Shown here: positions 36,528-57,662 of the stretch, one piece after another
Layout of the letters: each line of letters starts with the position of its first letter
Numbering within the stretch: position 1 is the stretch's first letter
DNA from: Bacillota bacterium
GTDB lineage: Bacteria; Bacillota; SHA-98; UBA4971
Length of the DNA stretch: 64,000 bases
Direction: 5' to 3'
Assembly: GCA_014360195.1 (NCBI GenBank)
Contig: JACIXY010000001.1
Coordinates: 186,989 to 250,988, forward strand
Made by a program: the position numbers and the translations under genes
Notes under the pieces: model-generated
Database searches by the model: none
What the model was told of the DNA's origin: nothing
Seen by the model: the letters and a program-made list of their open reading frames with translations, nothing else

Positions 36528-37511
36528 TTGGGCTTTCGCACATACTTGATTCGCCGGATAGTGTACGCATTGATCGTCCTTTTTGTGATTCTCACGTTCA
36601 ACTTCGCTGTCTTTCGACTGATGCCGGGTGACGCGGAGAAGATGATAATCGACCCGCGTTTCTCTCCCGAAGCAAGGATGGCCCTGCGCAAGCAGTTCGG
36701 GCTCGACGATCCTCCCCTGGTGCAGTACTGGAAGTACATCACAAGCCTCCTGAGGTTCGACCTGGGCCAGTCGTTTGCCACCAGACGGCCTGTGGCCAGC
36801 GAGCTTGCGGAGCGCCTCCCCAATACCATCGTGCTTTTCCTGACGGCGTTCACCCTGACCATGGTTATTGGAACAGCCGTGGGCGTATACGCGGCCCAGC
36901 ACAGGGGCACATTTGCTGAGACGTTCGTGACCGGGGCCGGACTTTTCACTTACGCTGTTCCGACGTTCTTCTTTCAGTTGTTGCTCCTGATGTTGTTTGG
37001 TTACTACATACGAATATTCCCCATACATGGCACGATGAGCGCCCCGCCTCCTGATGGGGCATTCCTGAGATTCCTTGACCGCGTTCACCACCTGATCCTT
37101 CCTGCCGGAAGCAACGTGATAATCGGGTTCGGCTCCTGGGCGCTCTATACGCGGAATACCATGCTTGAAGCTCTCGGCCAGGACTACATAATTACCGCCC
37201 GCGCCAAGGGGTTGCCGAGGCGCGAGATCCTTTACCATCATGCCTTAAGGAGTGTCCTGCCGCCCATTGTAACGCTGATCTTCCTGTCCTTGCCCGGCAT
37301 GGTTACGGGTGCTGTGATCACGGAGACTATATTCTCATGGCACGGAGTGGGCCGCTACCTGATGGACGCGGTGCTCCAGCAGGATTACCCTGCTGCGCAG
37401 GGGGCGTTCTACCTTATTGCTCTTGCTGTCATCATATCCAATTTCATGGCGGACCTGGTGTATGGACTTGTGGACCCGAGGATACGGGTCGGGGCGGGTG
37501 AACGCAGATGA
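36528..37511 (+). CDS. ABC transporter permease (OppB/DppB family)
   Basis: Six TM helices with an EAA-like loop (ITARAKGLPRREILYHHALRSVLPPIVT). TTG start after GAGGTGA. Confidence 0.85.
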   Translation: MGFRTYLIRRIVYALIVLFVILTFNFAVFRLMPGDAEKMIIDPRFSPEARMALRKQFGLDDPPLVQYWKYITSLLRFDLGQSFATRRPVASELAERLPNTIVLFLTAFTLTMVIGTAVGVYAAQHRGTFAETFVTGAGLFTYAVPTFFFQLLLLMLFGYYIRIFPIHGTMSAPPPDGAFLRFLDRVHHLILPAGSNVIIGFGSWALYTRNTMLEALGQDYIITARAKGLPRREILYHHALRSVLPPIVTLIFLSLPGMVTGAVITETIFSWHGVGRYLMDAVLQQDYPAAQGAFYLIALAVIISNFMADLVYGLVDPRIRVGAGERR

Positions 37512-38980
37512 ATGGCGAGACCGTAGCAGGTCAGGCCGCAGTGCAACCGGCACCAAGAAGAAAGCGTTCGGGGATCGCTGATTTCTGGGCGCAGTATCGG
37601 CGCAGGCCTTACGGGCTGGTGGGGCTGGTCATGCTCGCGATGTACATCGCGGTTGCGCTTGCTGCGCCGCTCCTTACGCCGTACGACCCGCGCAAGACGG
37701 AGTTCTTCCTTGCGGACAGGCTGGCTGCTCCGATATGGGCGAGGTTTATCATACCGCGCTTCCGGAATGCCCCGCCCACATCCAGGTACACGATTCATCC
37801 GGACCAGTGGAAGGTCGAACGCCAGGAACGGGCGAGTTTGTCTTTTGAAGAAGCAGGAGATCGGGGCGAGACCGCCGTCATCAGGTTTGAGCCGTCTGTC
37901 GAAGGCGGAGGGGGCGCGCGGAGCGAGCTGAGCTGGAAGGTCCACTACGGGTTCAACCCCCCGAATACGTTCGAAGGCAAGGTGACCTACCGGGTAGAGG
38001 CGCCCCCGGACGGAATGACACGGCTTTCGCTCGTAATCGTTGACCCCGAGGGCAAGGAGTATGACATATGGGGCACGGCTGTGTATGGTGAGCAGGACTG
38101 GACGACAGCAGCACTGGACTCGCGGGACCTGCAGATGAAGACCAGGCTGAATATGACGATATTCGATGACCCTGCCAAGGTCATTTTCTCGACAAAAGGC
38201 GATTACAGGCTCGTCCTGAAGGCTTCAAGCGAGAGCCCGTCGGCCGAGGCAAAGCTGTTCCTCGCTCCCGCGAAGTTCAACATTCTGGGCATTCTTCACG
38301 GCCTGCTGGGGGCCGATCATATGGGGGCGGATCTTTGGGCACAGCTTGTCTACGGTGCCAGGATCTCGCTCATCATCGGTATATCCGCGGCCGTCATAGG
38401 CGTGGCCCTGGGTACAACCATCGGGATTATCAGCGGATTCCTTGGAGGACCTGTGGACGAGTTTCTCATGAGGGTCGCAGATGTGTTTCTGTCGGTTCCG
38501 ACCTTGCCGGTGCTCATCATCCTGTCGGCTTTCCTTGGAAAGAACATGTGGAACATCGTTCTCCTCGTGGCAGCGTTCTCATGGATGGGATCATCACGAG
38601 TCGTGAGGTCCCAGACCCTGTCTCTCAAGGAAAGGGCTTTCGTCGAGGCCGCGAAGGCTGCAGGGGCGAGCGACGCTTACATCATGGTAGTGCATATCCT
38701 GCCGAACGTCCTGCCGCTCGTAGTGGCCAACATGGTCCTCATGATGCCCGTGGCCATCTTGTACGAGGCTTCCCTGAGCTTCCTGGGTCTCGGAGATCCC
38801 CGCATCCCGACATGGGGGCGCATGCTCCAGAATGCCCGAGCCTTCGGGGCGTTCACGGAGTTGGCCTGGTGGTGGCTCGTCCCGCCTGGCCTTGCCATCA
38901 CCCTTCTTAGCCTGAGCTTCACATTCATCGGCAACACGGTCAACGAAGTCCTCAATCCGCGGTACAGGGAGAGATCATGA
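37508..38980 (+). CDS. ABC transporter permease (OppC/DppC family) with ~200-aa extracytoplasmic insertion after TM1
   Basis: C-terminal 280 aa form a typical OppC core (IIGISAAVIGVALGTTIGIISGF...). Residues about 75-270 between TM1 and TM2 form an extra soluble domain. Confidence 0.8.
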   Translation: MNGETVAGQAAVQPAPRRKRSGIADFWAQYRRRPYGLVGLVMLAMYIAVALAAPLLTPYDPRKTEFFLADRLAAPIWARFIIPRFRNAPPTSRYTIHPDQWKVERQERASLSFEEAGDRGETAVIRFEPSVEGGGGARSELSWKVHYGFNPPNTFEGKVTYRVEAPPDGMTRLSLVIVDPEGKEYDIWGTAVYGEQDWTTAALDSRDLQMKTRLNMTIFDDPAKVIFSTKGDYRLVLKASSESPSAEAKLFLAPAKFNILGILHGLLGADHMGADLWAQLVYGARISLIIGISAAVIGVALGTTIGIISGFLGGPVDEFLMRVADVFLSVPTLPVLIILSAFLGKNMWNIVLLVAAFSWMGSSRVVRSQTLSLKERAFVEAAKAAGASDAYIMVVHILPNVLPLVVANMVLMMPVAILYEASLSFLGLGDPRIPTWGRMLQNARAFGAFTELAWWWLVPPGLAITLLSLSFTFIGNTVNEVLNPRYRERS

Positions 38981-38981
38981 G

Positions 38982-39974
38982 ATGGCGCTGCTGGAAGTAA
39001 AAGACCTGAAAATGTATTACCGGACCCTCCGGGGGCAGGTAAAGGCCGTGGACTGCGTGAGCTTCGAGATCGAGAAGGGCAAGGCGCTCGGCATTGCGGG
39101 GGAGTCAGGCTGCGGCAAGTCCAGCATGGCCATCACCGTGTTGAGGCTTCTGCCCAGCAACGGGCACATCCTGGGCGGGGAGGTCAGGATGGACGGGCTT
39201 GATCTTCTCAGCATGAGTGAGGAGGCCTTCCGGAAGGCCATCCGGTGGAGCAGGATATCCATGATATTCCAGGGGGCGATGAACGCGCTAAACCCGGTTC
39301 ACCGGGTGGGTAACCAGATCGTCGAGGCCATCCTGACGCATGAGGACGTCTCGCGGCAAGAAGCTGTGGAGCGCGCACGCAGGCTCCTGGATATGGTTGG
39401 GATCAGCCCGAGACGATTCAATGACTATCCCCACGAGTTTAGCGGTGGAATGAAGCAACGTGCGATCATCGCGATGGCGCTCGCGTGTAACCCGGACCTC
39501 GTGATAGCCGACGAGCCGACCACAGCGCTTGACGTCATGGTCCAGGCGCAGGTTCTCCGGGCCATCCAGGACCTCAGAGAGAAACTCGCCCTGTCGATGA
39601 TGCTGATCACCCACGATCTCTCTGTCATAGCCCAGACATGCGATGACGTGGCCATAATGTATGCGGGTAAAATAGTCGAGTACGGCACAGCCACTGAGGT
39701 ATACAAGAAGCCGTTACACCCGTACAGCATGGGGCTGGTCAGCGCGTTCCCGAACATCGCGGCCGAGAAATCGCCTGTCCGGTCGGTCCCGGGGTTCCCG
39801 CCCAACCTCGTCTCGCCGCCCGAAGGATGCAGGTTCCATCCCAGGTGCCCTCTGGCTGATGACAAGTGCAAGACCGAGGAACCCGCGAGCGTCGAGGTAG
39901 GGGGCAACCATCATTCCGTGGCATGCCACAAGGTAGATGTCACCGCAGGAGGGATTGACATATGGGTGCAGTAG
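38982..39974 (+). CDS. ABC transporter ATP-binding protein (OppD/DppD family)
   Basis: Walker A GESGCGKS, signature LSGGMKQR, Walker B LVIADEPTTALD, C-terminal oligopeptide-type extension with Cys motif. Confidence 0.9.
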   Translation: MALLEVKDLKMYYRTLRGQVKAVDCVSFEIEKGKALGIAGESGCGKSSMAITVLRLLPSNGHILGGEVRMDGLDLLSMSEEAFRKAIRWSRISMIFQGAMNALNPVHRVGNQIVEAILTHEDVSRQEAVERARRLLDMVGISPRRFNDYPHEFSGGMKQRAIIAMALACNPDLVIADEPTTALDVMVQAQVLRAIQDLREKLALSMMLITHDLSVIAQTCDDVAIMYAGKIVEYGTATEVYKKPLHPYSMGLVSAFPNIAAEKSPVRSVPGFPPNLVSPPEGCRFHPRCPLADDKCKTEEPASVEVGGNHHSVACHKVDVTAGGIDIWVQ

Positions 39975-40990
39975 CAACTTCCGAGCAGGCTGCCGGGGCC
40001 TGGACCGGCGATGTCGTGCTCCGGGTCGTGGACCTCGTAAAGCATTTCCCCATCCGTCGGGGCCTCATCCAGTCGCTGCGTGGAGGCCCTGTCCCTGCGG
40101 TGCGTGCCGTAGATGGCATCAGCTTCGACGTCAGGAAAGGCGAGATATTCGGGGTGGTGGGAGAGTCCGGGTGCGGCAAGACGACCATGGGGCGCACGAT
40201 TCTGAGGCTCATCGAGCCACAGTCAGGACACATCTTCTTCGAGGGGAGAGACCTCCTGGCACTCCCTTCGAATGAGATGAAACGCCTCAGGCGCAAGATG
40301 CAGATCGTGTTCCAGGACCCGTATGAATCCATGAACCCGCGGCTGAACGTGTACAGGATCATCTCAGAGCCTTTGCGCATCCAGGGAGTAGTCAAGGATG
40401 GGCATGAGGCGGTGGATCTTGTCAGCCAGGCGCTGGTTGACGTGGAGATGACCCCACCCGAGGAGTATATCTATCGGTATCCTCACGAACTTTCAGGCGG
40501 ACAACGTCAGAGGATCGCCGTGGCAAGGGCGCTCGTGCTGAACCCGGATTTCATCGTTGCGGATGAGCCTGTATCCATGCTGGACGTGTCCATCCGGGGC
40601 GAGATCCTCAACCTCATGCTCCGGCTGGCGAAGGAAAAGGGGGTGACCTTCGTATACATAACCCATGACCTCGCAACGGCGAGGCACATTTGCGACAGAA
40701 TCGGTGTAATGTACCTGGGCAAGATGGTGGAAGAGGGGAACACCGAGGACATAGTGAAGTTCCCGCTCCATCCTTACACCAGAGCCCTTCTCAACGCTGT
40801 GCTGATTCCTGATCCGTCGAAACGCGGGCTGCAGTCGGTCATGGCCGGCGAGGTGCCGAACCCGGTGAACCCTCCGAGCGGCTGCAGGCTACACCCCCGG
40901 TGCCCGGTAATGAAAGGCATCTGTCGCGAGAAGGAACCGGAGATAATCGAGCGCGAGGGAGGCCACAAAGTGGCGTGCCATTTTGCCTAG
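39962..40990 (+). CDS. ABC transporter ATP-binding protein (OppF/DppF family)
   Basis: Walker A GESGCGKTT, signature LSGGQRQR, Walker B FIVADEPVSMLD. Confidence 0.9.
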   Translation: MGAVATSEQAAGAWTGDVVLRVVDLVKHFPIRRGLIQSLRGGPVPAVRAVDGISFDVRKGEIFGVVGESGCGKTTMGRTILRLIEPQSGHIFFEGRDLLALPSNEMKRLRRKMQIVFQDPYESMNPRLNVYRIISEPLRIQGVVKDGHEAVDLVSQALVDVEMTPPEEYIYRYPHELSGGQRQRIAVARALVLNPDFIVADEPVSMLDVSIRGEILNLMLRLAKEKGVTFVYITHDLATARHICDRIGVMYLGKMVEEGNTEDIVKFPLHPYTRALLNAVLIPDPSKRGLQSVMAGEVPNPVNPPSGCRLHPRCPVMKGICREKEPEIIEREGGHKVACHFA

Positions 40991-41537
40991 AGGTGCGACC
41001 GCACCTTCAGGGTGCGGTGCGGCGGCAGGTGAGGTTCACGTGAGTGGGGTGCCCAGGTCGAGGAAGGCCGTTATCGTGCTTGCGGTGCTCGCGGCTGCGT
41101 CCTGCTGCCTGATCGTGGGGACCGCGGTCAACTATATGGGCGCGGCCAGGGCGGCATCGGGATTCTCTGCGTCCATTTCGGAGATAAGCCTGGAGGGGTC
41201 GGCGGACAGGCCCGCTGTGCGTGTCATGCTCGCGTTCGGTAATGACTCCAGCTGGCGGCTTGAGGCCCTGGAGGCACACGTCAGCGTCTTTTTCGGAGAG
41301 GAGTATGTCTGGGGCAGGAGCTTCGACTGGCTCGGCGACCCGATCGTTCTGGGCCCTGGTGACGAGAAGACCGTGCCCCTCGACGTTCACCTCCCACCCC
41401 AAAAACTCCCGGCTGGTGCTGAAGGCGGCATCTGGACGGCGCGGGTGAGTGGTTTGATAGACATGCCGATGTTGGGCAAGAAGGCGTTCCGGTGCTACGG
41501 CAGCACTTCCGCCCCCGGGGCGAATGGGGTGAAGTGA
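40983..41537 (+). CDS. hypothetical membrane-anchored protein (single N-terminal TM; LEA-2-like beta-sandwich possible)
   Basis: A good hydrophobic anchor (VIVLAVLAAASCCLIVGTAV) is followed by a 120-aa soluble region. The start is uncertain (a GTG near 41040 is possible). Confidence 0.35.
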   Translation: MPRGATAPSGCGAAAGEVHVSGVPRSRKAVIVLAVLAAASCCLIVGTAVNYMGAARAASGFSASISEISLEGSADRPAVRVMLAFGNDSSWRLEALEAHVSVFFGEEYVWGRSFDWLGDPIVLGPGDEKTVPLDVHLPPQKLPAGAEGGIWTARVSGLIDMPMLGKKAFRCYGSTSAPGANGVK

Positions 41538-41542
41538 CAGCC

Positions 41543-41953
41543 ATGAGTCGTACGCGTAACCGTATGTGGGACATGGTTCTTGCGACACTCCTCGCGGGGA
41601 CGTTCATCGCCGGCCCGCTTACAGCGCAGGCGTTGCCCAAGCTGGTGCCGGTGAGATTCGTGGCCGCGCACGCGATTCCGTTGGTTTTCTGCGCGGCGCT
41701 CATCGCCGGCATCTGTGTCGGGTTGCAGTCAAGTAATATCCATCGAGGAATTGCCGGTGCCGTGGGAACCGTGGTGGTTGCTGGAGTCATCTCGGGCGTG
41801 GTGCAGTTGCTGCCCACCTTCTCACAGCGCAGCAGCGAGACAGCACTTGTGTCAGTTGCGGTTGGCCAGAAGACGTTCGTCCTCGGTTTAGTTCTCATCC
41901 CCGTTGTTGTTCTTGGGGTTTTCATCGGGTCGGCCGCTTCGCGCGAGGACTAA
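41543..41953 (+). CDS. hypothetical integral membrane protein (4 TM)
   Basis: Four hydrophobic helices. No recognisable family. Confidence 0.35.
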   Translation: MSRTRNRMWDMVLATLLAGTFIAGPLTAQALPKLVPVRFVAAHAIPLVFCAALIAGICVGLQSSNIHRGIAGAVGTVVVAGVISGVVQLLPTFSQRSSETALVSVAVGQKTFVLGLVLIPVVVLGVFIGSAASRED

Positions 41954-42035
41954 GCGATGAAAGGCGCCGGGCCGGCGGGAGAGCGCGGTGTCTCCGGCCC
42001 AAATGGCGAGCCCGGGCCTCCACCGTGACGCGGGC

Positions 42036-42160
42036 TAAATGGGGGTGCAGAAATACTCCCGACTTTTGGGAAGGGTTGCCGGTGACTCAAAGAGAGAGTG
42101 CAACACCGGCAACCCGGCAACTACTGAGTGTGACAGGGACTTACGCAGCCTCACGTAGCT
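42036..42160 (-). repeat. MITE-like element, short form, 12 bp downstream of the beta-lactamase-like gene stop
   Basis: CTAAATGGGGGTGCAGAAATACTCCCGACTTTTGGGAAGGGTTGCCGGTGACTCAAAGAGAGAGTGCAACACCGGCAACCCGGCAACTACTG...CGCAGCCTCACGTAG. Confidence 0.8.
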
Positions 42161-42171: not shown

Positions 42172-43083
42172 TCATGCAGCGACCTTGAGCTGGTAGTCGT
42201 ACACCATCTTCGAGATGTCGGCGATCCTGGCGAAGCCTTCATCGATGTCGGGCACGTTCTTCGAGAGAACGACCAGGATGTAAGGGCGTGACGCGAAGAC
42301 TACGCCCACGTCGTTGGCGACACCGCTGACATCGCCCTCCTTGTGTGCTACCACGAGCCCTGGCGGCAGCTTCCCGGGGAGGCCCACGTGGTAGATGGGG
42401 TGGGCCATATCATCGAGGAGCCTTGTCCCAAGGGCCGGATAGTCGCGGCTGAAGTCCAGGACTCCCTGAACGTACTTGGCCATGTCCGCTGCGCAAGTGA
42501 TGTTGCGGCCCTCTGGGAAGACCACTTTGCCGCCGAGGTCCCTCATGAATGCCGCGATGTTGTCCTTCCCGAGGTGGCGTACGAGCATCCTGTACGCCAC
42601 GTTGTCGCTGATGGTTATGGCGAGATTCGCCAGCGTGCGCAGGGAGTAACTGTCGCCGTCCCGCGCGGCGAACTGGAGAATGCCCGCGCCGTCCTGGTAA
42701 TCCAGGGCGCTGTTGTAAACGACCCGGTCGTCCCAGCTTGCTTTGCCGCTCGCCACGAGATGATTCAGGTACAGCACCACCGGCACCTTTACGGTGCTTG
42801 CGGCCGTGATCGGCTCGCGATCGTTTATCCCGAAGCTCGCGCCTGAAGCAAGATCCCGGAAGTATATGGCGTACGTGGCGTCCTGGGACGCGATGTACTC
42901 CCCGAGCATCGCCTTGAGCGGCGCATAATCCGGGGCTGGAGGACGGTGTGTCGTTGCCCCGGGCGTGTTACCCGGGTGTCCTGGCGCGACACGCGTTCCG
43001 ACAAGTCCGTACGCGGAGGCGACCAGGAGCGCGATTGCCGCCGCGGCAACGATGATCCAGCGAAAGAACCTCGTTTTCCTCAC
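42172..43083 (-). CDS. class A beta-lactamase-related serine hydrolase
   Basis: Signal/TM anchor, SxxK motif (AASTVKVP), SDN motif (ITISDN), KTG-like HKEGD. Confidence 0.65.
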   Translation of the reverse strand: MRKTRFFRWIIVAAAAIALLVASAYGLVGTRVAPGHPGNTPGATTHRPPAPDYAPLKAMLGEYIASQDATYAIYFRDLASGASFGINDREPITAASTVKVPVVLYLNHLVASGKASWDDRVVYNSALDYQDGAGILQFAARDGDSYSLRTLANLAITISDNVAYRMLVRHLGKDNIAAFMRDLGGKVVFPEGRNITCAADMAKYVQGVLDFSRDYPALGTRLLDDMAHPIYHVGLPGKLPPGLVVAHKEGDVSGVANDVGVVFASRPYILVVLSKNVPDIDEGFARIADISKMVYDYQLKVAA

Positions 43084-43408
43084 AGGTCATCCTCCTCTCG
43101 TCAAGCTCATGTTTTGGGGTTCCTCAGGGAAACCCCAGCTCACCTGCGTATTATACGATCCCGACGACAGTGCGGCCAGGGTAATTTATGGGTCACATTC
43201 AGGGTGTGGAGCCACCTCGTGGAAACTCCGGCAGGAGATCGCATGTTGGCGATGAATGATCGACACAATACACCCTTCGAGTGGGCAACCGTCTCCGGGT
43301 TGTACGCCTTCCGCTGGGCTGGCTCCGGGGGCGGGCACGGGGGCGAGGGAGAGCGTTCCCCGCGAGAGGGGTGAATGGCGGGAATGGGGCTTCGGAGGAG
43401 TGGTCTGG

Positions 43409-44749
43409 ATGGGTGAGCCAGCGAAAGCGCCGGGCGACATCGTGAGGGGGCCTGGAGGCGCGGCCTGTCCGCAGCCCCTGCTTGGGGCGAAGCCGCAGGC
43501 CAGCGTGGTCGAGGACTTCGCCAGGTATGTGTCCCCCGGGAGGGTGGAGGTGTACCGAGCCCTCGGGTTCGACGCGGTTCCTGGCAGGCGCGAAGGGGTG
43601 TACGTCTGGGACCTAGACGGCAGGCGATACATCAACTGCCGGTCGAGCGGGGGCGTGTTTAACCTTGGGCATCGCCCACCCGCAGTGGTGAACGCGCTCA
43701 AGGAAGCGCTCGATGTCCTCGACATCGGGGACCACATGCTCCTCAGCGAACAGCGGGCCAGGCTCGCTGCCAGGCTCGCTGAGCTTACCCCCGGCGACAT
43801 CACGTATAGCTTTTTCACACCGAGCGGCGGCGAGGCGTGCGATGTCGCCATCAAGCTGGCCCGGGGTTACACGGGCCGCCCAGGCGTTGTCTCGGCGATC
43901 GACGGTTACCATGGTCACACGGGATTTGCCCTTTCGGCAGGGGATACCCGCTTCAAGAGGCACTTTGAGCCGCTCATGCCTGGGTTCACCCAGGTGCCTT
44001 TCGGGGACATCGACGCCGTAAGGCGCGCGGTTGATGAGACCACGGCCGCCGTGATATTCGAAACCATCCCGGCCACGGCGGGGATCATCATTCCGCCTGA
44101 CGACTTCTACCCGGCTGTCAGGAAGATCTGCGATAGCAGAGGCGCCCTACTCATCCTCGACGAGGTGCAGGCCGGGCTCGGGCGGACAGGCCGCCTGTGG
44201 GCCATCGATGAGTGGGGCGTGGTCCCGGACATCCTGGTCCTGGGCAAGGGGATGAGCGGCGGGGTTTACCCTCTATCTGCGGTGTGCTATAGGGAGCACG
44301 TCGATGAGTTCTTCAAGCGGAACCCGTTTGTGCACCTGACCTCTTTCGGTGGCGCGGACCTGGGGTGCGTGTGCGCCCTGGCGATGCTTGACGAGATCTG
44401 CCGCCCTGGGTTCCTGGACCACGTGGAGGAGATGGGCGTGCGTTTCGAGCGCGGGTTCGCGCGGCTGAAAGAGAAACACCCGGAGACCGTGGCGGGCTGG
44501 AGGCGGCGCGGGCTGATGATGGCCTTCGAGCTTGCGGAGGACAAGCTTGGCCCCATGATGACTTATGCCCTTGGCAAGAACGGTGTAATCGCCGTGTTCT
44601 CCGACTTTCGCCCCAGGGCGATGCAGATAATGCCGCCCCTCATAATACAGCCTGCCGAGGTGGACGAGGTGCTCGACGCGATGGACCGGGCGCTTGACCT
44701 GGTGGAGGGCATGGTCGCCGCCGGAGTGCCGGCCCCGTACATCCCTTGA
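43409..44749 (+). CDS. class-III (omega) aminotransferase, PLP-dependent
   Basis: Class III fold motifs (GGVFNLGHRPP, ILDEVQAGLGRTGRLWA, lysine in LVLGKGMSGG). The ATG at 43409 follows RBS GGAGGAG. The upstream in-frame extension is Gly/Pro-rich and looks non-coding. Confidence 0.8.
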   Translation: MGEPAKAPGDIVRGPGGAACPQPLLGAKPQASVVEDFARYVSPGRVEVYRALGFDAVPGRREGVYVWDLDGRRYINCRSSGGVFNLGHRPPAVVNALKEALDVLDIGDHMLLSEQRARLAARLAELTPGDITYSFFTPSGGEACDVAIKLARGYTGRPGVVSAIDGYHGHTGFALSAGDTRFKRHFEPLMPGFTQVPFGDIDAVRRAVDETTAAVIFETIPATAGIIIPPDDFYPAVRKICDSRGALLILDEVQAGLGRTGRLWAIDEWGVVPDILVLGKGMSGGVYPLSAVCYREHVDEFFKRNPFVHLTSFGGADLGCVCALAMLDEICRPGFLDHVEEMGVRFERGFARLKEKHPETVAGWRRRGLMMAFELAEDKLGPMMTYALGKNGVIAVFSDFRPRAMQIMPPLIIQPAEVDEVLDAMDRALDLVEGMVAAGVPAPYIP

Positions 44750-44757
44750 AAGCGACT

Positions 44758-44955
44758 GAGCGAAGGTGCGTTAGTCCTCGTCCCTCTGCCAGTAGTTGGC
44801 GGGTTGCCGGTGTTGCACTCGGGGACGGCGCCCCAAGCGGGGCGCGCTTCGCCAAAACCGGGCCCGTCGGGCAAGTGGCCGGATTTTGACACCCCTCGGG
44901 CAGGCACCGGCAACCCCTCCCAAAAGTCGGGAGCATTTCTGCACCCCACTTAGAG
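44758..44955 (+). repeat. MITE-like element, long form, ending 20 bp before the start of the RPH-like gene
   Basis: TIRs GAGCGAAGGTGCG ... GCACCCCACTTAGAG. Core about 92% identical to 7425-7623. Confidence 0.85.
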
Positions 44956-44974
44956 CCATGGAGGGAACGTCCAG

Positions 44975-47848
44975 GTGGATCCCTACGTTTTGAGGCTTGA
45001 CGAGATCGGACCCGAGCATGATGCCCTCGTGGGCGGGAAGGCGCGCAACCTCGCCAGGCTGATCCGCGCAGGGTTGCCTGTGCCCCTAGGGTTTGTCATC
45101 ACGACCGCAGCCTATCTTCGGCATGCGGCAGGGGACCACTGTGATGCGCGGGGGATAGCGGAGCCCGAGAGCGGAGCGTTGCTCTCGCCCATGAGCGTGC
45201 CGGACGACTCAAGCGCCCCGGGCGGGGAGCTGCCGACTATGGATGCCGGGTGCCGGGCCGACTCTGGGCCGCAGCGGGAGATCGCGTCCACCCTGTGGAG
45301 CGCGGTCCGCGAGGCCTACGAGGAACTTCTGCGCTTTCATCCGGCCGCGTCTTGTGCTGTACGATCCTCTGCTAACGTAGAGGATGAGGTGGGGTCCTCG
45401 CATGCGGGACAGTACGACACGGTCCTCGGAGTGGAGGACTGGGATGCCCTGGTCGAGGCCGTCCTCGCCTGTTGGGGATCGCTGAATGGAGAGAGAACGC
45501 GCGCGTACTCGCCGCATCGCGAGACACGACGTGGTCGGCGCCACCTGGAGCAGGCTATGGCCGTAATCGTGCAGCTCGAGGTGCCCGCGGAGGTGAGCGG
45601 CGTCCTCTTTACCCTCAATCCCCAGTCCGGCAAGGAGAACGAGATGCTGGTTGAGGCCACCTGGGGACTGGGCGAGGCGCTGGTGGCGGGGCTCGCCACC
45701 CCTGACAGATTCGTGGTAGACACCTGGGCGGAAGCGGTTGTGGATGTGCGGGTGAGCGACAAAAAGGTTATGGTGGCGTCCGGTGGTGCGGGGCCAACAC
45801 CTGTGCCTGACAAGATGCGGACAAAGCGCACGCTCGATGACGGGGCTCTGCTACGCCTTGCCCGACTGGGCGAGAAGATCCAGGAGGAGTATGGCCTGCC
45901 CCAAGATATCGAGTGGGCCCTGTCCGGTAACCAGATCTTCATACTTCAGGCGCGCCCCCTCACAGCTTTTTCTTTCGCGGCAGATTTCGGTGAGTGGACG
46001 TCGGCGAACTTCAGAGAGGTGATGCCCGGGTTTGCCTCTTACCTGAGCCAGTCCATGTCTTTCCACCACGATTTTGCCCGAGCGATGGACGAAGTCTTCA
46101 AGCGCATAAGGCTGTACCGTAAGGAGGACGCAGGCACGAGGTGGGCGGCGACATTCTTCGGCCACGGCTACTGGAACGTGGGCGCGGCCAAGCGGGTCGC
46201 GGCGCGGGTCCCAGGATTCAGGGAGCGCGCCTTCGACAGGACGGTCGGGATCGTCCCCTCGTATGAAGGGGACGGAGATGTGACCCCATGGACGCCTGCG
46301 ACGGTCCTGCGGGCGCTTCCCTCGCTTTTCGCTCTGAAGAAGCATTACCGGCTCGCGGTCGAGGAGGCTAGACGTTTTATCTCGTGGTTCGACGCAAATG
46401 AGCGCAAGTGGGACGAGGTGAAGCCGGAGGCGCTTGACGACACTGACCTCAAGTCGTGGGCGAAGTTCGCCATCGACCTGCATTGGCGGGCCAACCGTTG
46501 GGCCCTCGTGATCTCTCTCCTCGGGACGCAGGCCCAAGACGACTTTCATGCCACGGTAGAGAAGCTCAACAGGCACGCCAAAAAAGCAGGCAGGGCGGTA
46601 TCCGAAGCCCGTCTTCTCACCGGCATCTCCCGGATGGCCACGGCGAGGCCCCTGGCTGCTCTCTGGGAGCTTGCCAGGTTTGCCGAGGCAAGGCCCGTGG
46701 TTGCAGACACTCTGAAGAGGCTGTCGCCCTGGGAACTCTCGGAGGTGTTCAGACGATGGGAGGCCGAGGCAGGGGACGGCTTGTGTACCACCGGCGGCGA
46801 GGCGCCCGATTTGGGGGAGTTCTGGAGACGGTTCGCCGCGTGCATCTCGGAGTTCCGTTATATGTCGGAGGTTGACGAGGACCTCGCTGTTCCAAGATGG
46901 TCCGAGGACGTGGCCCTCCCTCTCTCGATGCTGCAGGCGTGTTTGTCTGGAGAGGTCGGGGAAGATCCGCGCCTGCAGATAGCCCGCCAGGAGCAAGTGC
47001 GTAGAGAGGAGGAACAGGTTGCCGCCTGCATGCTAAGGGCGCCCGGCTGGGCCGCCTGGCTCAACCCATTCCGGCTTCGCGGGTTCCGCGCGCAGCTCGA
47101 ACTGGTGAGGCGTCTTGCGTGGTGGCGTGAGGAAACCCGCGTGTATCTGAGCCGCGCAAGGTACCATACGAGGCGCTTCCTCAAGGAGCAGGGGAGGCGC
47201 TGGGCGGCAAAGGGCATGCTCGGCGCGGACGACGACATCTTCTGGATGTCCCGGGACGAAGTGCTCGGCTTGCTTGAGGGATCAGCTGACTTTCGGAAGG
47301 TACGTGAGACGGTCAAGAGAAGGCGCCGCATCCCCGTGGCATACAGGAACTTTGTCCCTCCACCTGTGATCCAGCCGGGCCCCGCTCGCGTTCTCACGAA
47401 GCGTTCTCTGGCTCCTCGCGCACGCAGCACGGAGGATACAGTCGCCATGGTATACCTCAACCGCCAGAATACCATGCCTGCTCCCGTGACGGAGGCTGCG
47501 AGCGCGCATCAGACGTATACGGGCGTGGGCTGCTCGGCAGGGGTGGTTCGCGGCGTCGCCAGGGTGATCAGATCTCTCGACGAAGCGGGCACTCTCCGGA
47601 AAGGCGAGGTCCTGGTGGCCCCCTTTGCAAACCCAGGCTGGATGCCCCTTTTCAACGTTGCGTCTGCAATTGTGCTTGAAGAGGGAGGCCTTCTGTCCCA
47701 TAGCGCTGTGGTTGCCAGAGAGTACGGAATTCCAGCGGTGTTGCAGGTCGAAGGGGCGACGACCAGGCTGCACACCGGAGATCTCGTAGTTGTCGACGGG
47801 GGGCGGGGCGTCGTTGAGGTGCTCCGAAGGAGCCACGAGGAAGGCTAA
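44975..47848 (+). CDS. PEP-utilising three-domain phosphotransferase, rifampicin-phosphotransferase (RPH)-like architecture (PPDK_N ATP-grasp + central domain + C-terminal swivel His domain)
   Basis: N-terminal VGGKARNLARLIRAGLPVPLGFVITTAAYL...DIEWALSGNQIFILQARP (PEP synthase/PPDK nucleotide-binding domain). C-terminal GWMPLFNVASAIVLEEGGLLSHSAVVAREYGIPAV (PEP-utilisers mobile domain). No TIM-barrel PEP/pyruvate domain. GTG start. Confidence 0.7.
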   Translation: MDPYVLRLDEIGPEHDALVGGKARNLARLIRAGLPVPLGFVITTAAYLRHAAGDHCDARGIAEPESGALLSPMSVPDDSSAPGGELPTMDAGCRADSGPQREIASTLWSAVREAYEELLRFHPAASCAVRSSANVEDEVGSSHAGQYDTVLGVEDWDALVEAVLACWGSLNGERTRAYSPHRETRRGRRHLEQAMAVIVQLEVPAEVSGVLFTLNPQSGKENEMLVEATWGLGEALVAGLATPDRFVVDTWAEAVVDVRVSDKKVMVASGGAGPTPVPDKMRTKRTLDDGALLRLARLGEKIQEEYGLPQDIEWALSGNQIFILQARPLTAFSFAADFGEWTSANFREVMPGFASYLSQSMSFHHDFARAMDEVFKRIRLYRKEDAGTRWAATFFGHGYWNVGAAKRVAARVPGFRERAFDRTVGIVPSYEGDGDVTPWTPATVLRALPSLFALKKHYRLAVEEARRFISWFDANERKWDEVKPEALDDTDLKSWAKFAIDLHWRANRWALVISLLGTQAQDDFHATVEKLNRHAKKAGRAVSEARLLTGISRMATARPLAALWELARFAEARPVVADTLKRLSPWELSEVFRRWEAEAGDGLCTTGGEAPDLGEFWRRFAACISEFRYMSEVDEDLAVPRWSEDVALPLSMLQACLSGEVGEDPRLQIARQEQVRREEEQVAACMLRAPGWAAWLNPFRLRGFRAQLELVRRLAWWREETRVYLSRARYHTRRFLKEQGRRWAAKGMLGADDDIFWMSRDEVLGLLEGSADFRKVRETVKRRRRIPVAYRNFVPPPVIQPGPARVLTKRSLAPRARSTEDTVAMVYLNRQNTMPAPVTEAASAHQTYTGVGCSAGVVRGVARVIRSLDEAGTLRKGEVLVAPFANPGWMPLFNVASAIVLEEGGLLSHSAVVAREYGIPAVLQVEGATTRLHTGDLVVVDGGRGVVEVLRRSHEEG

Positions 47849-47977
47849 TGATCAGGCTGGCTCCGCGAAGTTCATCGCGGGTAGACCCTGCTCTGTCCGC
47901 CGAGCCGTAAACCCCACCTGACGCGGTCCAAAGTGGCGGGCCGGGTGATTGATTGGCGATGTGTTATCCTGGCGCGT

Positions 47978-48391
47978 TCAGTCCGTTACCGGCTCCCAGT
48001 CGAACAGCTCTTCGTCTGCGAGGCCGAAGATGTGCTCCGCAGCGGCCTCCTCGTTTTTATGCTTGAGGACGTCGGGGAGGGAACGCTGTACAGTGGGTTT
48101 GAGCCTGACGACCACGGCTTTTCCGCGAGATGTGATTCTTGCGCATGGATCGCCGGACGCGATGTTCTTGATGTTGCCCTTACCGAACGTACAGCCCGTT
48201 GAGAGCTGCAGCCCGTCGTTCATGCAGGCAACCGGGGGCGTATCTCCTGCGAATGACTCGACCGTGATGCCGAAGTACTTCTTCGCGCGGAGCTGTTCGA
48301 GGGCAAGGAGTCCCATCCTGTAACCGATAACTACGTACGGACCAAGATGGCCGTGGAACTCTCTGATCCGCCCCAGAACCTCGTTCATCAT
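47978..48391 (-). CDS. FmdE/FwdE-domain protein (formylmethanofuran dehydrogenase subunit E-like, Zn-binding)
   Basis: FHGHLGPYVVIGYRMG and CMNDGLQLSTGCTFGKGNI are hallmark motifs. ATG-ATG start after RBS GGGAGGGAAGG. The upstream in-frame extension is Arg-rich and looks non-coding. Confidence 0.7.
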   Translation of the reverse strand: MMNEVLGRIREFHGHLGPYVVIGYRMGLLALEQLRAKKYFGITVESFAGDTPPVACMNDGLQLSTGCTFGKGNIKNIASGDPCARITSRGKAVVVRLKPTVQRSLPDVLKHKNEEAAAEHIFGLADEELFDWEPVTD

Positions 48392-48603
48392 CCTTCCCTC
48401 CCTGGGACTTGAGGCCGTTGTCACGGGCAGCCGTCTCCGGGCCTCCCAGGAGGCGGTGCCGCCGGAGTGTCGGGTGCCACCGCGCTGCCCACGAGGCGGC
48501 ACGAAGAACCGACAACGCGCCGCGCCGTGGCCTGCGTGCCGCGACCACGTGGAGAGCGGCGCGAAGGCGCGCCTTTGCGTTTGCCTGTGATTTCTCTTTT
48601 GCC

Positions 48604-49269
48604 TTACGATATTAGACAACGGGCTTCCGAGTCCTTCTCCAGGCTCTCCAGCCGCTCCTCGAGTTCCTCTATTCTGTGGCTGAGGGATTCAAGCGCCGAC
48701 TGGACGGGGTCTGGCAGGTTCTGGTGGTTGAGGTCAATCCCCGGGACGCGCTTGCCGTACCTGGCGACGACCCTGCCCGGCACGCCCACCACGGTCGCGC
48801 CGGCCGGCACTGGCCTCAGCACCACGGCCCCGGCGCCGATCTTCGCCTCATCACCGACCTCGAATGACCCCAGTACCTTTGCTCCGGCGGCTATGACGAC
48901 GCGGTTCCCAATGGTTGGATGGCGCTTACCCTTCTCCTTGCCGGTGCCGCCGAGGGTCACTCCCTGGTAGATGGTGACGTCGTCGCCGATCTCCGTGGTC
49001 TCGCCGATCACGACGCCCATGCCGTGGTCAATGAAAAGGCGGCGTCCGATGCGCGCTCCAGGGTGGATCTCTATCCCGGTCAGGAAGCGCACTACGTGTG
49101 AGATGAGCCTTGCGATGACGAACATCTTCCTCTGATAGAAGAAATGGGCGATCCTGTACCCTATGACCGCGTGAAGCCCAGGGTAGCACAGGATGACCTC
49201 GAGCACGTTCTTGGCTGCGGGGTCCCGCTCGAATACGACCTTGATGTCCTCACGAATGCGCTCAAACAT
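48604..49269 (-). CDS. cysE: serine O-acetyltransferase
   Basis: N-terminal SATase domain, then hexapeptide repeats ([38 protein letters not shown]). Confidence 0.9.
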
Positions 49270-50498: not shown

Positions 50499-50648
50499 GC
50501 GGCGCTTCGTTACAAGACGCAGCCGCTGGGCGCTTGTCGGTCGAGGTCCCGCCGTCTCGCCGAGGCATCTCTACCGACCACGGCTGCTATGTGTCCTCTG
50601 TTCTGCGCATAATAGCCACAGAGCAAAAGAACGTGGCAACGCAAAGCT

Positions 50649-50797
50649 AGGTGAGGGTTCAGCAATGCTTCCCACTTGTGGGAAGGGTTGCCGGTGGTTG
50701 CACGAGGGATGTCAAAACCCGGCCACTCGCCTGACGGGCCGGATTTCGGCGAAGTGACCCCGCTGGAGGCGCCATCCCCGAGTGCAAAACCGCCGCT
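50649..50797 (-). repeat. MITE-like element, long form, degenerate at one end
   Basis: TAGGTGAGGGTTCAGCAATGCTTCCCACTTGTGGGAAGGGTTGCCGGTGGTTGCACGAGGGATGTCAAAACCCGGCC...GGCCGGATTTCGGCGAAG... is the reverse complement of the 7425-7623 core. Confidence 0.75.
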
Positions 50798-51823: not shown

Positions 51824-52076
51824 CCCATAGCGTGGAGGGAATTCCATCGTGGGAGTGGAAAGAAGAGGGCAGCGGGAAGAGGTCCTGGAGCGAAGCATCA
51901 CGCGGGAGGAGGATGGACTGGTGAAAGAGGAGTGCACACTGGTGGACGACGGTGCGGGCGACGCTGCGTCCGCCGGGTCCGGGCCCGTGAGGAGCGCAGC
52001 CGACGAATGTCCCGTGATGCTGCCTGAGGCGCACAGGGAGGGCGGTCAGGACGGCGATGTGCCAGGGAAGGCACGG

Positions 52077-54698
52077 ATGCCAGGGCCGAGCCCGGGGGCT
52101 GCCGGGTCTCGCGGTGGCGAGAGGCGCATCACGCTCCGGATCACCGGAATGACGTGCGCGTCGTGCGCCGCCAGGGTCGAGCGAGCGCTCGCGAGGTCCG
52201 AGGGCGTGCTCTCGGCCCGCGTCAACCTTGCCACCGAGCGCGCTACCGTTGTGTACGACCCGTCCCGCACTAGCGCGTCCGTGCTCGTCGACAGGGTCCG
52301 CGAGGCTGGCTATGACGTGGGCCTCGCCACTGTCACCCTCGTTGTCCCGGGCATGACGTGCGCCTCATGCGTAGCCAGGGTCGAGCGGGCGCTTCGGCGC
52401 GCCCCGGGCGTCATCGACGCAGCAGTAAATCTTGCCACCGAGAGGGCCACGGTCCGCTACAGCCCCGACGAGACCTCTCCTGCCGATCTTGTGAGAGTCG
52501 TCCACGATGCGGGGTACGAGGCCCGCGAGGTCCGCGAAGGTGAAGAGGCGGGTGCCGCGAAGGACAGGGAAGAGCGCCGTCGCGAAGCCGAGATAAGGCG
52601 CCAGAGGGCCCTTTTTGTCCTTGCGGCGGCTTTGTCGGCGCCCCTCCTCACTCTCATGCTTTCCCACCTCTTGGGTGTGCACCTGCCCTCGCCTTTCACC
52701 GACCCTCTCTTCCAATTCGCCCTCGCCACGCCGGTGCAGTTCGTGGCCGGGTGGCAGTTCTACACAGGGGCGCTGGCGGCTCTTCGCGCGCGCTCCCCGA
52801 ATATGGACGTGCTCGTTGCACTGGGCACCACGGCGGCATATGGGTTCAGCGTATACCAGACGTTCGTGGGTCGAGGCCACGTCTACTACGAGTCCTCAGC
52901 CGTGGTCATCACCCTTGTGCTTCTCGGGCGGCTCCTCGAGGCCCGGGCGAAGGGCAGGACCTCTGAGGCTATAAGAAAGCTCATGGGCCTTGCGCCCCGA
53001 GTTGCGCACGTGGTGCGCGATGGCAAGGAAGTGGACGTGCCCACGGACGAGGTGCGGGTGGGCGACGTAGTTGTCGTGAAGCCCGGCGAGAGGATACCGG
53101 TGGACGGGGTTATACTCGAGGGCACCTCGGTAGTGGACGAGTCCATGCTCACCGGCGAAAGCATCCCCGTCGAGAAGGGCCCCGGCGACGAGGTCACCGG
53201 GGCGACGGTCAACAGGCACGGGTCGTTCAAACTCCGTGCGACCAGGGTGGGAAGGGACACCGTTCTCTCCCAGATCGTACGGATGGTGGAAGAGGCGCAG
53301 GGGTCGAAAGCGCCCATCCAGCGCGTCGCCGACGTCGTCGCAGGGTACTTCGTCCCGGTGGTGCTTGGGGTGGCGCTCGTGGCCCTCGTAGGGTGGCTCA
53401 TCGCCACGGGTGATCCCGGCCGCGCGTTCTTTGCGTTCACGGCGGTGCTGGTGATCGCGTGCCCGTGCGCCCTCGGCCTTGCCACGCCGACTGCCATCAT
53501 GGTGGGCACAGGGAGGGGAGCTGAAGCTGGCATCCTCATCCGTGGCGCGGAGCATCTCGAAAGGGCGCACAAGATCGATACCGTGGTGTTCGATAAGACC
53601 GGGACCATCACCAGGGGCGAGCCGGAGGTGGTAAGCGAGGCAACGGCCCGAGCTGCGGGAACGTCAACAGCCGCGGTTGTGGCAACGGCAACGGCTGCAC
53701 CTGCGACGGCGGCAACGGCCGGGGTTACGACCGCGGCCGGGATCCCAGCTGGGGTTGCGCCCGCGGCAGAGCGGGCAGCAGCAGGAGACGCGTCGGCCAC
53801 ACCACGGGCGCAGGTCGGGCCTCGCGGCGGGCGCGAGCCGGCCCGCGAGATGCTGAGGCTGGCGGCGTCGGCCGAGATGCGGTCTGAGCACCCGCTTGGC
53901 GCGGCCATCGTGCGGCGGGCCCACGCCCTCGGGATCGAGCCGGCGGAGCCCACGCAGTTCGAGGCAATCCCGGGGAAGGGCATCCGCGCCCAGGTGGACG
54001 GCACCGTCGTACTCGTCGGGACGCGACGTCTTCTTGAGGAGAACGGCGTGGACGTGCCTTGCGGTCTTGATGAGGTACGGCACTCCATGGAGGCGCAGGG
54101 GCAGACCGCGATGCTCGTGGCGGCGGACGGACAGGCCCTCGGTGTCATCGGCGTGGCTGATACTGTGAAGGAGACTTCGCGCGAGGCCATCAGGGCCCTT
54201 CGTGCCCTGGGCGTGGACGTGGTCATGATAACGGGCGACAACGAGCGCACGGCCCGGGCCATCGCGCGCCAGGTGGGCATCGAGAGGGTGCTCGCAGAGG
54301 TGCTCCCGGGCGACAAGGCGAGGGAGGTGGAGCGGCTGCGCGCCGAGGGCAGGGTCGTGGCCATGGTCGGCGACGGCATCAACGACGCGCCGGCCCTCGC
54401 CGCGGCTGATGTCGGGATAGCCATGGGGACCGGCACCGACATAGCCATGGAAGCGGCGGATATCACGCTCATTCGAGGGGACCTTCGCGCCGTGGCCGCG
54501 GCCATCCGCCTCAGCCGACGCACTATGGCAACTATCCGCCAGAACCTGTTCTGGGCCTTCATCTACAATGTAATTGGCATCCCACTCGCGGCTTTCGGCC
54601 TTCTCTCCCCGGTGATCGCCGGGGCGGCCATGGCGTTCTCATCGGTGTCGGTCGTGACCAACTCCCTCAGGTTGCGCCGCTTCGACCCGCTCAGGTAG
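52077..54698 (+). CDS. copA: copper-translocating P1B-type ATPase with two N-terminal HMA domains
   Basis: Two [15 protein letters not shown] metal-binding domains, CPC ([12 protein letters not shown]), [15 protein letters not shown]. Contains an Ala/Thr-rich low-complexity insertion in the N-domain. The ORF is open from 51849, but the first 75 codons look non-coding. An ATG at 52077 or 52017 is more plausible. Confidence 0.85.
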
Positions 54699-55695
54699 GA
54701 AGCGCAGCGATTATGGCATCCGCCATTTTGTCGGTGGTGGCGTTGCCACCGAGGTCTGGCGTAAGGACACGGCCTTCGGCCAGGACCTTCGTTACCGCGG
54801 CTTCGACGGCGGCGGCGCGTTCAGCCTCTTCGAGGTGTCGCAGCATCATGGCGCCGGACAGGATCGTGGCGATGGGATTTGCGATCCCTCGCCCCGCGAG
54901 CTCGGGAGCACTTCCGTGTACGGGCTCGAAGACGGCTATTTCGTCCCCGATGTTGGCCCCGGGAGCGAGTCCCAGCCCGCCTGCAAGTCCCGACGCGAGG
55001 TCCGACACGATGTCCCCGTACAGATTGGGCAGGAGCAGCACGTCGAAGCTCTCTGGTGCCATCACGAGCTGCATGCACAGGGCGTCGATGATGCGATCGT
55101 CGAACTCGATCTCCGGATAGTCGCGGGCCACCTGACGGGCGCAGTCTAGGAAAAGCCCATCAGTGAGCTTCATGATATTGGCCTTGTGGCCGCAGGTCAC
55201 CTGACGTCGTCCCTCGCGCCTGGCGAACTCCATCGCGGCGCGGGCGATGCGTTCCGAGCCTTTCCGAGTAATGACTTTGACCGTTTCTGCCGTGTCCTCG
55301 TCCACCCATCGCTCCTTGCCCGCGTATACGTCCTCAGTGGCCTCTCGAAAGATCACGAGGTCCACTCGAGCATACCTTCCGGGCACGCCGGGCAGCGTTC
55401 TAACCGGGCGGACATTGGCATAAAGGTCGAGAGCAACACGCAGGCCCACATTGACGCTGCGGAACCCGCTTGCTACAGGCGTCGTGACGGGGCCTTTGAG
55501 GGCGACGCCGGTCCGTCGCACCGACTCGACGACCTCGTCGGGGAGGGGAGTGCCGCAGCGCGCGAGCATTTCCGCACCTGCCTGCACTTGCTCCCACTCG
55601 ATCGCAGCTCCGGTGGCTTCGAGCACTCGCTTTGCCGCGAGGACCACTTCCGGGCCGATGCCGTCCCCAAGGATAAGCGTTACTCTGTGCGACAC
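54691..55695 (-). CDS. leuB: 3-isopropylmalate dehydrogenase family enzyme (short LeuB/HICDH/IDH-type beta-decarboxylating dehydrogenase)
   Basis: 334 aa, [49 protein letters not shown]. Last gene of the leuA-like/leuC/leuD/leuB string. Confidence 0.75.
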
Positions 55696-55809
55696 GGTCT
55701 ATCCCTCCGGCGGACCGGCTTTGATGTCGTCGGTCGCACGTAGTCGCGCATAAGTAAGTCCTTACCCGTCCGGCGGATTGGTGCGATGGTGCTTGCAGTT
55801 CACGCAAGG

Positions 55810-56313: not shown

Positions 56314-56366
56314 CTGGCTATCACCCCTGTGATAACCGACCGTCGGCCGGGCCTTTTGCTGGCTTG

Positions 56367-57623: not shown

Positions 57624-57662
57624 GCTGACGATGCCTCCCTTGTGCGTTGGCGCCGCTCGCTG

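Follow-up and report, generated by a model that had tools for sequence, protein, structure and literature searches.

We describe a conserved gene pair found in a 64,000-nt stretch of a Bacillota genome (hereafter the window; contig JACIXY010000001.1, positions 186,989 to 250,988 of the forward strand). One gene encodes a 957-residue dikinase of the rifampin phosphotransferase (RPH) type; the other, directly upstream on the same strand, encodes a pyridoxal phosphate (PLP) enzyme of the class-III aminotransferase fold, here called the partner. This pairing is our chief new finding and the main clue to function. By sequence and predicted fold, the dikinase is a member of the RPH-type superfamily, within an uncharacterised clade that has its own substrate-binding module: the catalytic chassis is a known one, and both the acceptor half-domain and the conserved partnership are new. 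Very probably it acts with the PLP partner on some metabolite, and on neither rifampicin nor pyruvate. RPH-type dikinases are a small, recently recognised class whose few substrates are rifamycins, bipyrrole aldehydes and phenols, and this clade would add a substrate class and probably a new short pathway. Our literature search found no paper on the dikinase clade or the gene pair, and homologs of both genes carry generic or automatic names alone in public sources.

Conservation of the pair and architecture of the dikinase

Of 43 ortholog loci in Bacillota and Chloroflexota, about 40 carry the partner gene directly upstream of the dikinase gene and in the same orientation. All 11 ortholog loci of the first round have it, and the pairing is kept in loci where the dikinase is only 43-47% identical and the neighbourhoods are unrelated (L007, L008, L010 and L011). 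A metagenome scan that used the half-domain motifs described below as query, and that counted orthologs of at least 40% identity with enough upstream sequence, found the partner in 28 of 29 further loci; it is also upstream in L140, L142 and L144. A negative control came from a genome-collection scan with full-length alignment, which returned mostly distant RPH-like paralogs since its query patterns lay in shared domains; among the matches listed, the partner adjoins none of 78 paralog loci. The two genes are separated by 14-60 nt in L001 and L003-L007, which suggests that they are co-transcribed. For 27 of the 120 best partner homologs, the longest contig has the same size in nucleotides as that of one of the 120 best dikinase homologs. 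Across ortholog loci the partner is better conserved (52-96% identity) than the dikinase (41-94%).

The preliminary description of this DNA had not mentioned the partner gene. Its reading frame in the window opens at 43256 (497 aa) and is probably overlong at the 5' end: partner orthologs are 406-461 aa long, similarity to them begins at about residue 52-76 of the 497-aa frame, and a start at the GTG of 43400 would shorten it to 449 aa, one at the ATG of 43409 to 446 aa.

The dikinase reading frame is the longest of its region, and its GTG start is credible: the protein begins with VDPYVLRLDEIGPEHDALVGGKARNL, which pairs with the N-terminus of RPH-Lm from position 1 onward. A Pfam scan places PPDK_N (PF01326) at residues 17-332 (3e-67) and PEP-utilizers (PF00391) at 875-945 (6e-24) and finds nothing else, in agreement with the end domains that the preliminary description had assigned from the letters; as it had also claimed, a phosphoenolpyruvate (PEP)/pyruvate TIM barrel is missing, with no Pfam match to PEP-utilizers_C (PF02896) anywhere in the 957 residues. 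The phosphohistidine motif GGLLSHSAVVAREYGIPAV spans residues 904-922, with the His909 codon at 47699-47701. In an AlphaFold2 model built on 21 orthologs (mean pLDDT 80.7, pTM 0.80), the central acceptor domain is all-helical and covers about residues 333-800 (approximately 470 aa, close to the 450 first estimated), and the C-terminal domain is beta/alpha. Three stretches of the model are disordered (55-104, 180-191 and 803-843). The first of these had been described as a low-complexity insertion; the stretch is real, with a very low pLDDT of 27-29, but it is no insertion relative to RPH, since it pairs with about residues 50-95 of RPH-Lm; it is a degenerate stretch whose length varies among orthologs.

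The three-domain RPH layout proposed earlier is upheld by structure comparison. In a Foldseek search of the model against the PDB, six RPH-Lm entries rank top, the best being 5hv1 (E 4e-41, about 1000 aligned columns, approximately 21% identity); next come HpeI (9goj, ATP-grasp domain), PEP synthase and pyruvate phosphate dikinase, which match via the shared end domains alone.

Alignment of 21 full-length dikinase orthologs, from 94% down to 41% identity, shows invariant K22, R130 and Q310/D311/E313 in the ATP-grasp domain, W716, R718, E719 and R722 in the middle, and H909 in the swivel domain, so that the catalytic His is retained. K22 and R130 align with RPH-Lm Lys22 and Arg117, and the swivel domain pairs with RPH-Lm residues 766-866, His825 included. 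With a family profile, residues from about 561 to 800 align with the RPH-Lm acceptor domain (534-770 of the 5hv2 chain), and R718/E719/R722 face R666/E667/K670. In RPH the latter residues hold the phosphate and position His825, and resistance is lost when R666 or E667 is mutated (PMC4844700). HapC/PigC use their counterparts of the Arg and His (PMC13534948). The dikinase has all three hallmarks of the superfamily, namely PPDK_N with its Lys and Arg, a C-terminal GGxxS/T-H, and an RPH-type acceptor domain with an Arg-Glu-Lys/Arg motif. By analogy with these homologs, the set of residues for His-mediated phosphoryl transfer to a bound acceptor appears complete.

No curated NCBIfam model claims the protein. 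Its NCBIfam scores are 350 bits for the PRK06241.1-3 models (cut-off 945), 327 for RedH (1350) and 308 for PigC (1300) from the NF052631/NF052632 set, 299 (298.6) for the RPH model NF041857 (999), 199 (199.4) for the RPH model NF000283 (1700), 292 for the PEP synthase model TIGR01418 (740; 739.75), reached via the two shared domains alone, and 140 and lower for the PRK08296 models (578), which match residues 639-951. We rejected the RPH, PigC, RedH and PRK06241 equivalogs, all scores being far under the cut-offs and the N-terminal acceptor half unmatched. PADLOC gives no match to an anti-phage defence gene for either the dikinase or the partner.

This N-terminal half is the clade's own. Residues 335-560 have no match among the NCBIfam models, those for RPH, PigC, RedH and PRK06241 included, and a profile of residues 335-532 finds nothing in the PDB, RPH included, even with E values up to 10 allowed. 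When 1.84 billion cluster representatives were searched exhaustively with HMMER, 251 proved to have the half-domain at E<=1e-3, and 22 did so at the stricter E<=1e-30. Within the clade the half-domain is strongly conserved; its motifs are WTSANFREVMPGF, FGHGYWNVG and PGFxERAFDRTVGIxPxYEGDG; the acidic cluster DEDLxxPRWxED sits in the C-terminal half. That second half (561-800), taken alone, gives weak matches to the PRK06241, RedH, PigC and RPH models. A precomputed Pfam annotation, PF27448 (Rph_4th), has been placed on orthologous proteins between the two end domains, at a position not given exactly. Most of the acceptor-domain residues that are invariant in the 21 orthologs are polar or carry a charge, as would suit a small hydrophilic substrate.

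The same half-domain occurs in a clade of dikinases of about 31% identity (L128, 84-6087; L130, 768-9317; L133). In L128 the dikinase gene overlaps the start of a gene for a 985-aa protein that by eye reads as a class-III aminotransferase, an arrangement of translational coupling, and a multi-pass membrane protein is encoded next. The 985-aa protein keeps EPIQGEGG and a gateway-type Arg and is fused to a C-terminal domain of approximately 500 aa that looks NAD-binding or reductase-like by eye. L130 has a sensor kinase and a sigma-54 activator encoded upstream.

What the pair may do

The closest solved relatives of the partner are the E. coli putrescine aminotransferase YgjG (2e-78) and PigE (4ppm, 3e-66). 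All its NCBIfam scores are under cut-off, including 267 bits for the PigE model and 221 against 525 for the PbfA lyase model. We aligned E. coli GabT, YgjG and 22 partner orthologs, and use GabT numbering. The PLP residues D239, Q242 and K268 are invariant in the orthologs. Three other positions have changed in 22 of 22: R141 is His (in YHGHTG), E211 is Thr or Pro, and R398 is Gln, Ile or Leu. The E211/R398 'gateway' together with R141 typifies 2-oxoglutarate-dependent class-III transaminases, and the R141 position is His in the lyase ETNPPL (PMC8154272 supplement). YgjG, unlike the partner, retains the gateway Glu and Arg. The partner thus lacks the residues of a 2-oxoglutarate-dependent aminotransferase and has the one expected of an ETNPPL-like phospho-lyase. 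With the three transaminase residues lost in every ortholog, it is unlikely to be a canonical transaminase, and a lyase-type or other non-transaminase PLP reaction is, to judge by these residues, the more likely.

A third gene recurs in 11 of the 22 diverse loci. It encodes a zinc-dependent alcohol dehydrogenase (Zn-ADH) of the threonine/polyol-dehydrogenase (Tdh) type, 406-449 aa long; its members are orthologous, at 47-55% identity to one another, and resemble Tdh, scyllo-inosose dehydrogenase and galactitol-1-phosphate dehydrogenase. The gene either closely precedes the partner gene in the same direction or closely follows the dikinase gene in convergent orientation, and the trio Zn-ADH, partner, dikinase is contiguous and co-directional in L102, L109, L115, L011 and L108. 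Besides this one, no other enzyme gene is conserved around the pair across lineages. That the dikinase is encoded in one conserved operon with a PLP enzyme, in many loci alongside an alcohol dehydrogenase, points to metabolism. Two genes for aldehyde:ferredoxin oxidoreductases flank the pair in L007, which would fit an aldehyde product.

What reaction the pair carries out, in which direction and on what class of substrate, we infer from these features. Since the partner lacks the residues that bind 2-oxoglutarate or glutamate and has the ETNPPL-type His, the most likely logic is a kinase followed by a PLP phospho-lyase. Our specific reading, which we put forward tentatively and by analogy, is that the dikinase adds phosphate to a hydroxyl group on a small polar metabolite that has an amine, and that the partner then eliminates phosphate and ammonia. 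On the model of RPH, PpsAB and HpeHI, ATP would bind in the ATP-grasp domain; His909 on the swivel domain would attack the beta-phosphate, giving a pyrophosphorylated His from which the gamma-phosphate would leave as inorganic phosphate (Pi). The swivel domain would next swing to the helical acceptor domain, where R718/E719/R722 would position the phospho-histidine for transfer of the phosphoryl group to a hydroxyl or enol oxygen of the bound molecule (ATP + X-OH -> AMP + Pi + X-O-P). The acceptor hydroxyl would belong to an amino alcohol or a related hydroxy-amine; elimination of phosphate and ammonia by the partner would yield an aldehyde or ketone; and the Zn-ADH, where it adjoins the pair (about half of the lineages), would interconvert carbonyl and alcohol.

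There are precedents for such a sequence of steps. The mycobacterial RMM locus, for use of 1-amino-2-propanol or aminoacetone, encodes a dehydrogenase, a phosphotransferase and a class-III 'aminotransferase'. The RMM enzymes reportedly work as a kinase and then a phospho-lyase. ETNPPL is a eukaryotic precedent for the lyase step (PMC8154272 supplement). A wider proposal, about which we are more doubtful still, is that the pair, with the Tdh-like Zn-ADH where present, is an unrecognised ATP-dependent deamination pathway of anaerobic Chloroflexota and Bacillota. The two-gene module is compact and directly testable in vitro.

Several points weigh against phosphorylation followed by elimination. 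First, the support is computational. Second, the partner is overall closest to the true transaminases YgjG and PigE, not to PbfA nor, probably, to ETNPPL, so that lyase activity would need an independent origin. Third, mutase, racemase and decarboxylase PLP chemistries fit the residue losses of the partner equally well. Fourth, there are exceptions to the pairing: the dikinase stands alone in L141 and the partner alone in L145, and L105 shows no partner. Fifth, the Zn-ADH gene is not found near the pair in the window or in the window's lineage, and no transporter or regulator is consistently linked to the pair across the 22 diverse loci, which is somewhat unusual for a catabolic module. Finally, in the window itself, a hairpin-forming miniature inverted-repeat transposable element (MITE) now parts the two genes.

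The strongest rival explanation, to our minds unlikely, is a condensing enzyme like PigC or RedH. A PigE-like partner would make an amine or carbonyl, and phosphorylation of a carbonyl or enol oxygen by the dikinase would activate it for condensation through a C-N or C-C bond; the phosphate would be lost on condensation and the product would be a heterocycle or secondary amine. RedH (327 bits) and PigC (308 bits) are among the best NCBIfam matches of the dikinase, PigE is the second-best solved relative of the partner (with 267 bits for the PigE model), and the acceptor-site Arg and His have their equivalents in the PigC/HapC mechanism. The coupling of the distant half-domain clade to an aminotransferase-reductase-like fusion and a membrane protein also looks biosynthetic. 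Yet the RedH and PigC scores are far under their cut-offs, the N-terminal acceptor half is unmatched by either model, and no further biosynthetic genes are conserved around the pair. The partner, moreover, is without the gateway residues that one would expect in a PigE-like aminotransferase.

A biosynthetic route running from alcohol to amine would use the same three enzymes: the Zn-ADH would oxidise a polyol or secondary alcohol, the partner would aminate the resulting ketone and the dikinase would phosphorylate the amino-polyol, much as inosamine phosphate or serinol phosphate is formed. The contiguity of the trio in five loci, the likeness of the Zn-ADH to Tdh and to the scyllo-inosose and galactitol-1-phosphate dehydrogenases, and the lack of any transporter linked to the module speak for this route. 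We nevertheless rate it a little less probable than condensation: the loss of R141, E211 and R398 from all 22 partners leaves no canonical binding of an amino-acid donor, and the Zn-ADH is missing from half of the loci, the window included.

The preliminary description had raised the possibility that the enzyme inactivates rifamycins. A true rifamycin phosphotransferase conferring resistance might seem favoured by the shared three-domain fold, for which RPH-Lm is the top structural match, by conservation of the catalytic His together with the R-E-K/R motif, and by the class A beta-lactamase gene that lies 2 kb upstream. We consider this very improbable. Identity to RPH-Lm is about 21%, and the scores for the two RPH models are 299 of the required 999 and 199 of 1700. 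The rifampin cleft of RPH-Lm is made of Gln336/337, Tyr351, Thr354, Leu478, Phe479 and Met673, with mostly hydrophobic contacts, and its drug-contact residues 336-479 lie in the N-terminal half of the acceptor domain (PMC4844700). The region of the dikinase opposite residues 336-479 cannot be aligned, and its conserved acceptor residues are polar or charged. In anaerobic Chloroflexota and Bacillota, furthermore, the dikinase gene shares a conserved operon with the gene of a PLP enzyme. Resistome screens could flag the gene as rph-like, with a beta-lactamase gene nearby, but the evidence favours ordinary metabolism.

Just as improbable is a single-chain phenol-type dikinase (of the PpsAB, CreHI or HpeHI kind) that starts aromatic catabolism. 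The family is known to phosphorylate phenolics, HpeI (9goj) is a structural match for the ATP-grasp domain, and residues 639-951 match the PRK08296 models, which we take to be phenylphosphate-synthase-alpha-like. Those matches reach 140 of 578 bits at most, however; the conserved partner is a PLP enzyme, and no carboxylase or aromatic-catabolic genes lie nearby in the window or the listed ortholog loci. Lastly, a true PEP synthase (pyruvate, water dikinase) can be ruled out in spite of the TIGR01418 match and of homologs named 'PEP/pyruvate-binding domain-containing protein' or 'pyruvate, water dikinase' (misleading names of the kind that the preliminary description had anticipated), for there is no PF02896 TIM barrel, the His domain is C-terminal and not central, and 292 bits fall well short of 740.

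The junction of the two genes and the surrounding window

The MITE-like copy that had been noted upstream of the dikinase gene is a discrete element. The window has 225 nt between the partner stop (44749) and the dikinase start, and the element sits between the stop codon and the ribosome-binding site. In L001, a locus of 94% identity, the two genes are 31 nt apart with no MITE, and the flanks are otherwise collinear, including the GGAGG ribosome-binding site; the copy is thus proven to be an insertion relative to this related genome. The predicted fold of the whole intergenic stretch (44750-44974) has -104.7 kcal/mol and a z of -2.3. In this genome the two genes may, as a result, be transcribed separately. 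A scan of 43000-48200 for promoters and terminators gave no signal above chance.

The element belongs to an intergenic family, MITE-like or like repetitive extragenic palindromes (REPs), with at least 10 copies in the 64 kb, in both orientations. The copies share terminal inverted repeats, approximately CTAAGYGRGGGTGC ... GGGTTGCCGGTG, and have variable cores. A Chloroflexota-type locus, L099, carries a 203-aa reading frame (4297-4908) between the partner and dikinase genes that by eye resembles a REP-associated/IS200-like transposase; if it is one, it marks a second mobile-element insertion at the junction that holds the MITE in the window. L142 also has an extra reading frame inside the operon; the frames in L099 and L142 are mutually unrelated, and no Pfam match is recorded for either. 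The features of the pair and the copies of the repeat family are collected in the table.

Features of the dikinase gene, the partner gene and the MITE family in the window
Feature	Position	Strand	Basis
Partner gene, class-III aminotransferase-fold PLP enzyme	43400-44749 (start uncertain)	+	Pfam Aminotran_3, 1e-83
MITE-like insertion, about 193 nt	about 44757-44949		Terminal inverted repeats, strong hairpin; absent from L001
RPH-type dikinase gene, 957 aa	44975-47848	+	GTG start; stop codon inside span; uninterrupted translation
ATP-grasp nucleotide-binding domain, residues 1-333	44975-45973	+	PPDK_N 3e-67; invariant K22, R130, Q310/D311/E313
Disordered, length-variable segment in ATP-grasp domain, residues 55-104	45137-45286	+	pLDDT 27-29; absent from P0007, P0009, P0010
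N-terminal half of acceptor domain, residues 335-560	45977-46654	+	Clade-specific; without NCBIfam or PDB match
C-terminal half of acceptor domain, residues 561-800	46655-47374	+	Homologous to RPH RIF-binding domain; profile alignment
Acceptor-site phosphoryl-transfer motif R718-E719-(E-T)-R722	47126-47140	+	Equivalent to RPH-Lm R666/E667/K670; codons checked
Disordered linker between acceptor and swivel domains, residues 803-843	47381-47503	+	pLDDT <50; length varies in alignment
Swivel phosphohistidine domain, residues 845-957	47507-47845	+	PEP-utilizers 6e-24; His909 in GGLLSH
MITE-family copies, forward group	13-154, 7411-7626, 17892-18107, 32957-33001		Repeat search of window
MITE-family copies, reverse orientation	42032-42126, 50644-50738, 62565-62659, 62876-62970		Repeat search of window
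MITE-family copies, remaining	1476-1520; 44743-44957 (copy between partner and dikinase)		Repeat search of window

Several other neighbours of the pair are peculiar to the window's lineage. Upstream (34660-41953, plus strand) are the genes of an Opp/Dpp-type ABC transporter (SBP_bac_5, two permeases, two ATPases) and of two small predicted membrane proteins, an arrangement kept in L003-L006 and L090 and not outside the lineage; the transporter could serve substrate uptake for the pathway in this lineage, or simply reflect synteny. Between the small membrane-protein genes and the partner gene lies the class A beta-lactamase-family gene (42172-43083, minus strand; Beta-lactamase2, 8e-48). L003-L006 have no gene at this site, and a MITE copy (42032-42126) lies alongside it in the window; the gene has the look of an insertion, specific to the lineage, in an otherwise conserved block. 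Downstream, an FmdE-domain gene (47978-48619, minus strand) runs towards the dikinase gene; L001, L002 and L006 have it too, and it is absent from the other ortholog loci for which genes were listed.

Farther downstream is a gene for a 949-aa copper-type P1B ATPase with two heavy-metal-associated domains (51849-54698, plus strand), where the local GC content, 0.686, is the maximum for the window. A 121-nt direct repeat of 70% identity (52129-52249 and 52333-52453) in the N-terminal region of this gene probably reflects duplication of the heavy-metal domain. A row of homocitrate-synthase-like, aconitase-family and isocitrate/isopropylmalate-dehydrogenase-family genes (54691-58859, minus strand), syntenic in related loci, is probably an alpha-aminoadipate lysine pathway. 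We considered as conserved partners of the pair the Opp-type transporter, the small membrane proteins, cysE/cysK, SpoIID, the copper ATPase and these lysine genes, and rejected them all, as their linkage is synteny of the window's lineage alone.

Comparison with known systems

In PEP synthase and pyruvate phosphate dikinase the ATP-grasp and swivel domains are homologous to those of the dikinase, and GGxxSH is likewise present; the dikinase differs from these enzymes in domain order and in having no PEP/pyruvate TIM barrel. HpeHI, PpsAB and CreHI share its ATP-grasp, swivel and acceptor modules and the cycle of pyrophospho- and phospho-histidine; these, however, are systems of two proteins that act on phenols within aromatic-catabolic clusters, whereas the dikinase is a single chain with a PLP partner.

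RPH-Lm (PDB 5FBS/5FBT/5FBU and 5HV1-3) is the top match by both sequence and fold. It has the same domain order, and its Lys22, Arg117, His825 and R666/E667/K670 correspond to K22, R130, H909 and R718/E719/R722. Relative to RPH-Lm, the dikinase is approximately 90 aa longer, with two disordered segments, has a first half of the acceptor domain without detectable similarity in sequence, and stands in the context of a metabolic operon.

ETNPPL/AGXT2L1 and the RMM systems resemble the pair in the proposed phosphorylation followed by PLP elimination, with a dehydrogenase alongside, and ETNPPL shares its His with the partner. On the other side, the partner is nearer to YgjG, ArgD and PigE than to the PbfA lyase model, and the loci have no microcompartment genes. 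The kinases of amino-alcohol phospho-lyase systems are small APH-type phosphotransferases and are not known to include dikinases. If our reading of phosphorylation and elimination is right, a PEP-synthase-type dikinase would here replace the usual small kinase in activating a hydroxy-amine for PLP elimination.

PigC, HapC and RedH, taken together with PigE, offer the other close parallel: an RPH-like architecture, an acceptor-site Arg/His pair and a class-III PLP companion of the YgjG/PigE type. The partner described here differs in being a stand-alone protein of about 430 aa without gateway residues, and no pig or red biosynthetic genes occur in the window or in the 22 ortholog loci. Should the proposed chemistry be correct, the RPH superfamily would gain a new substrate class and a new type of acceptor domain, along with an evolutionary tie between the gene pair and PigC/PigE.

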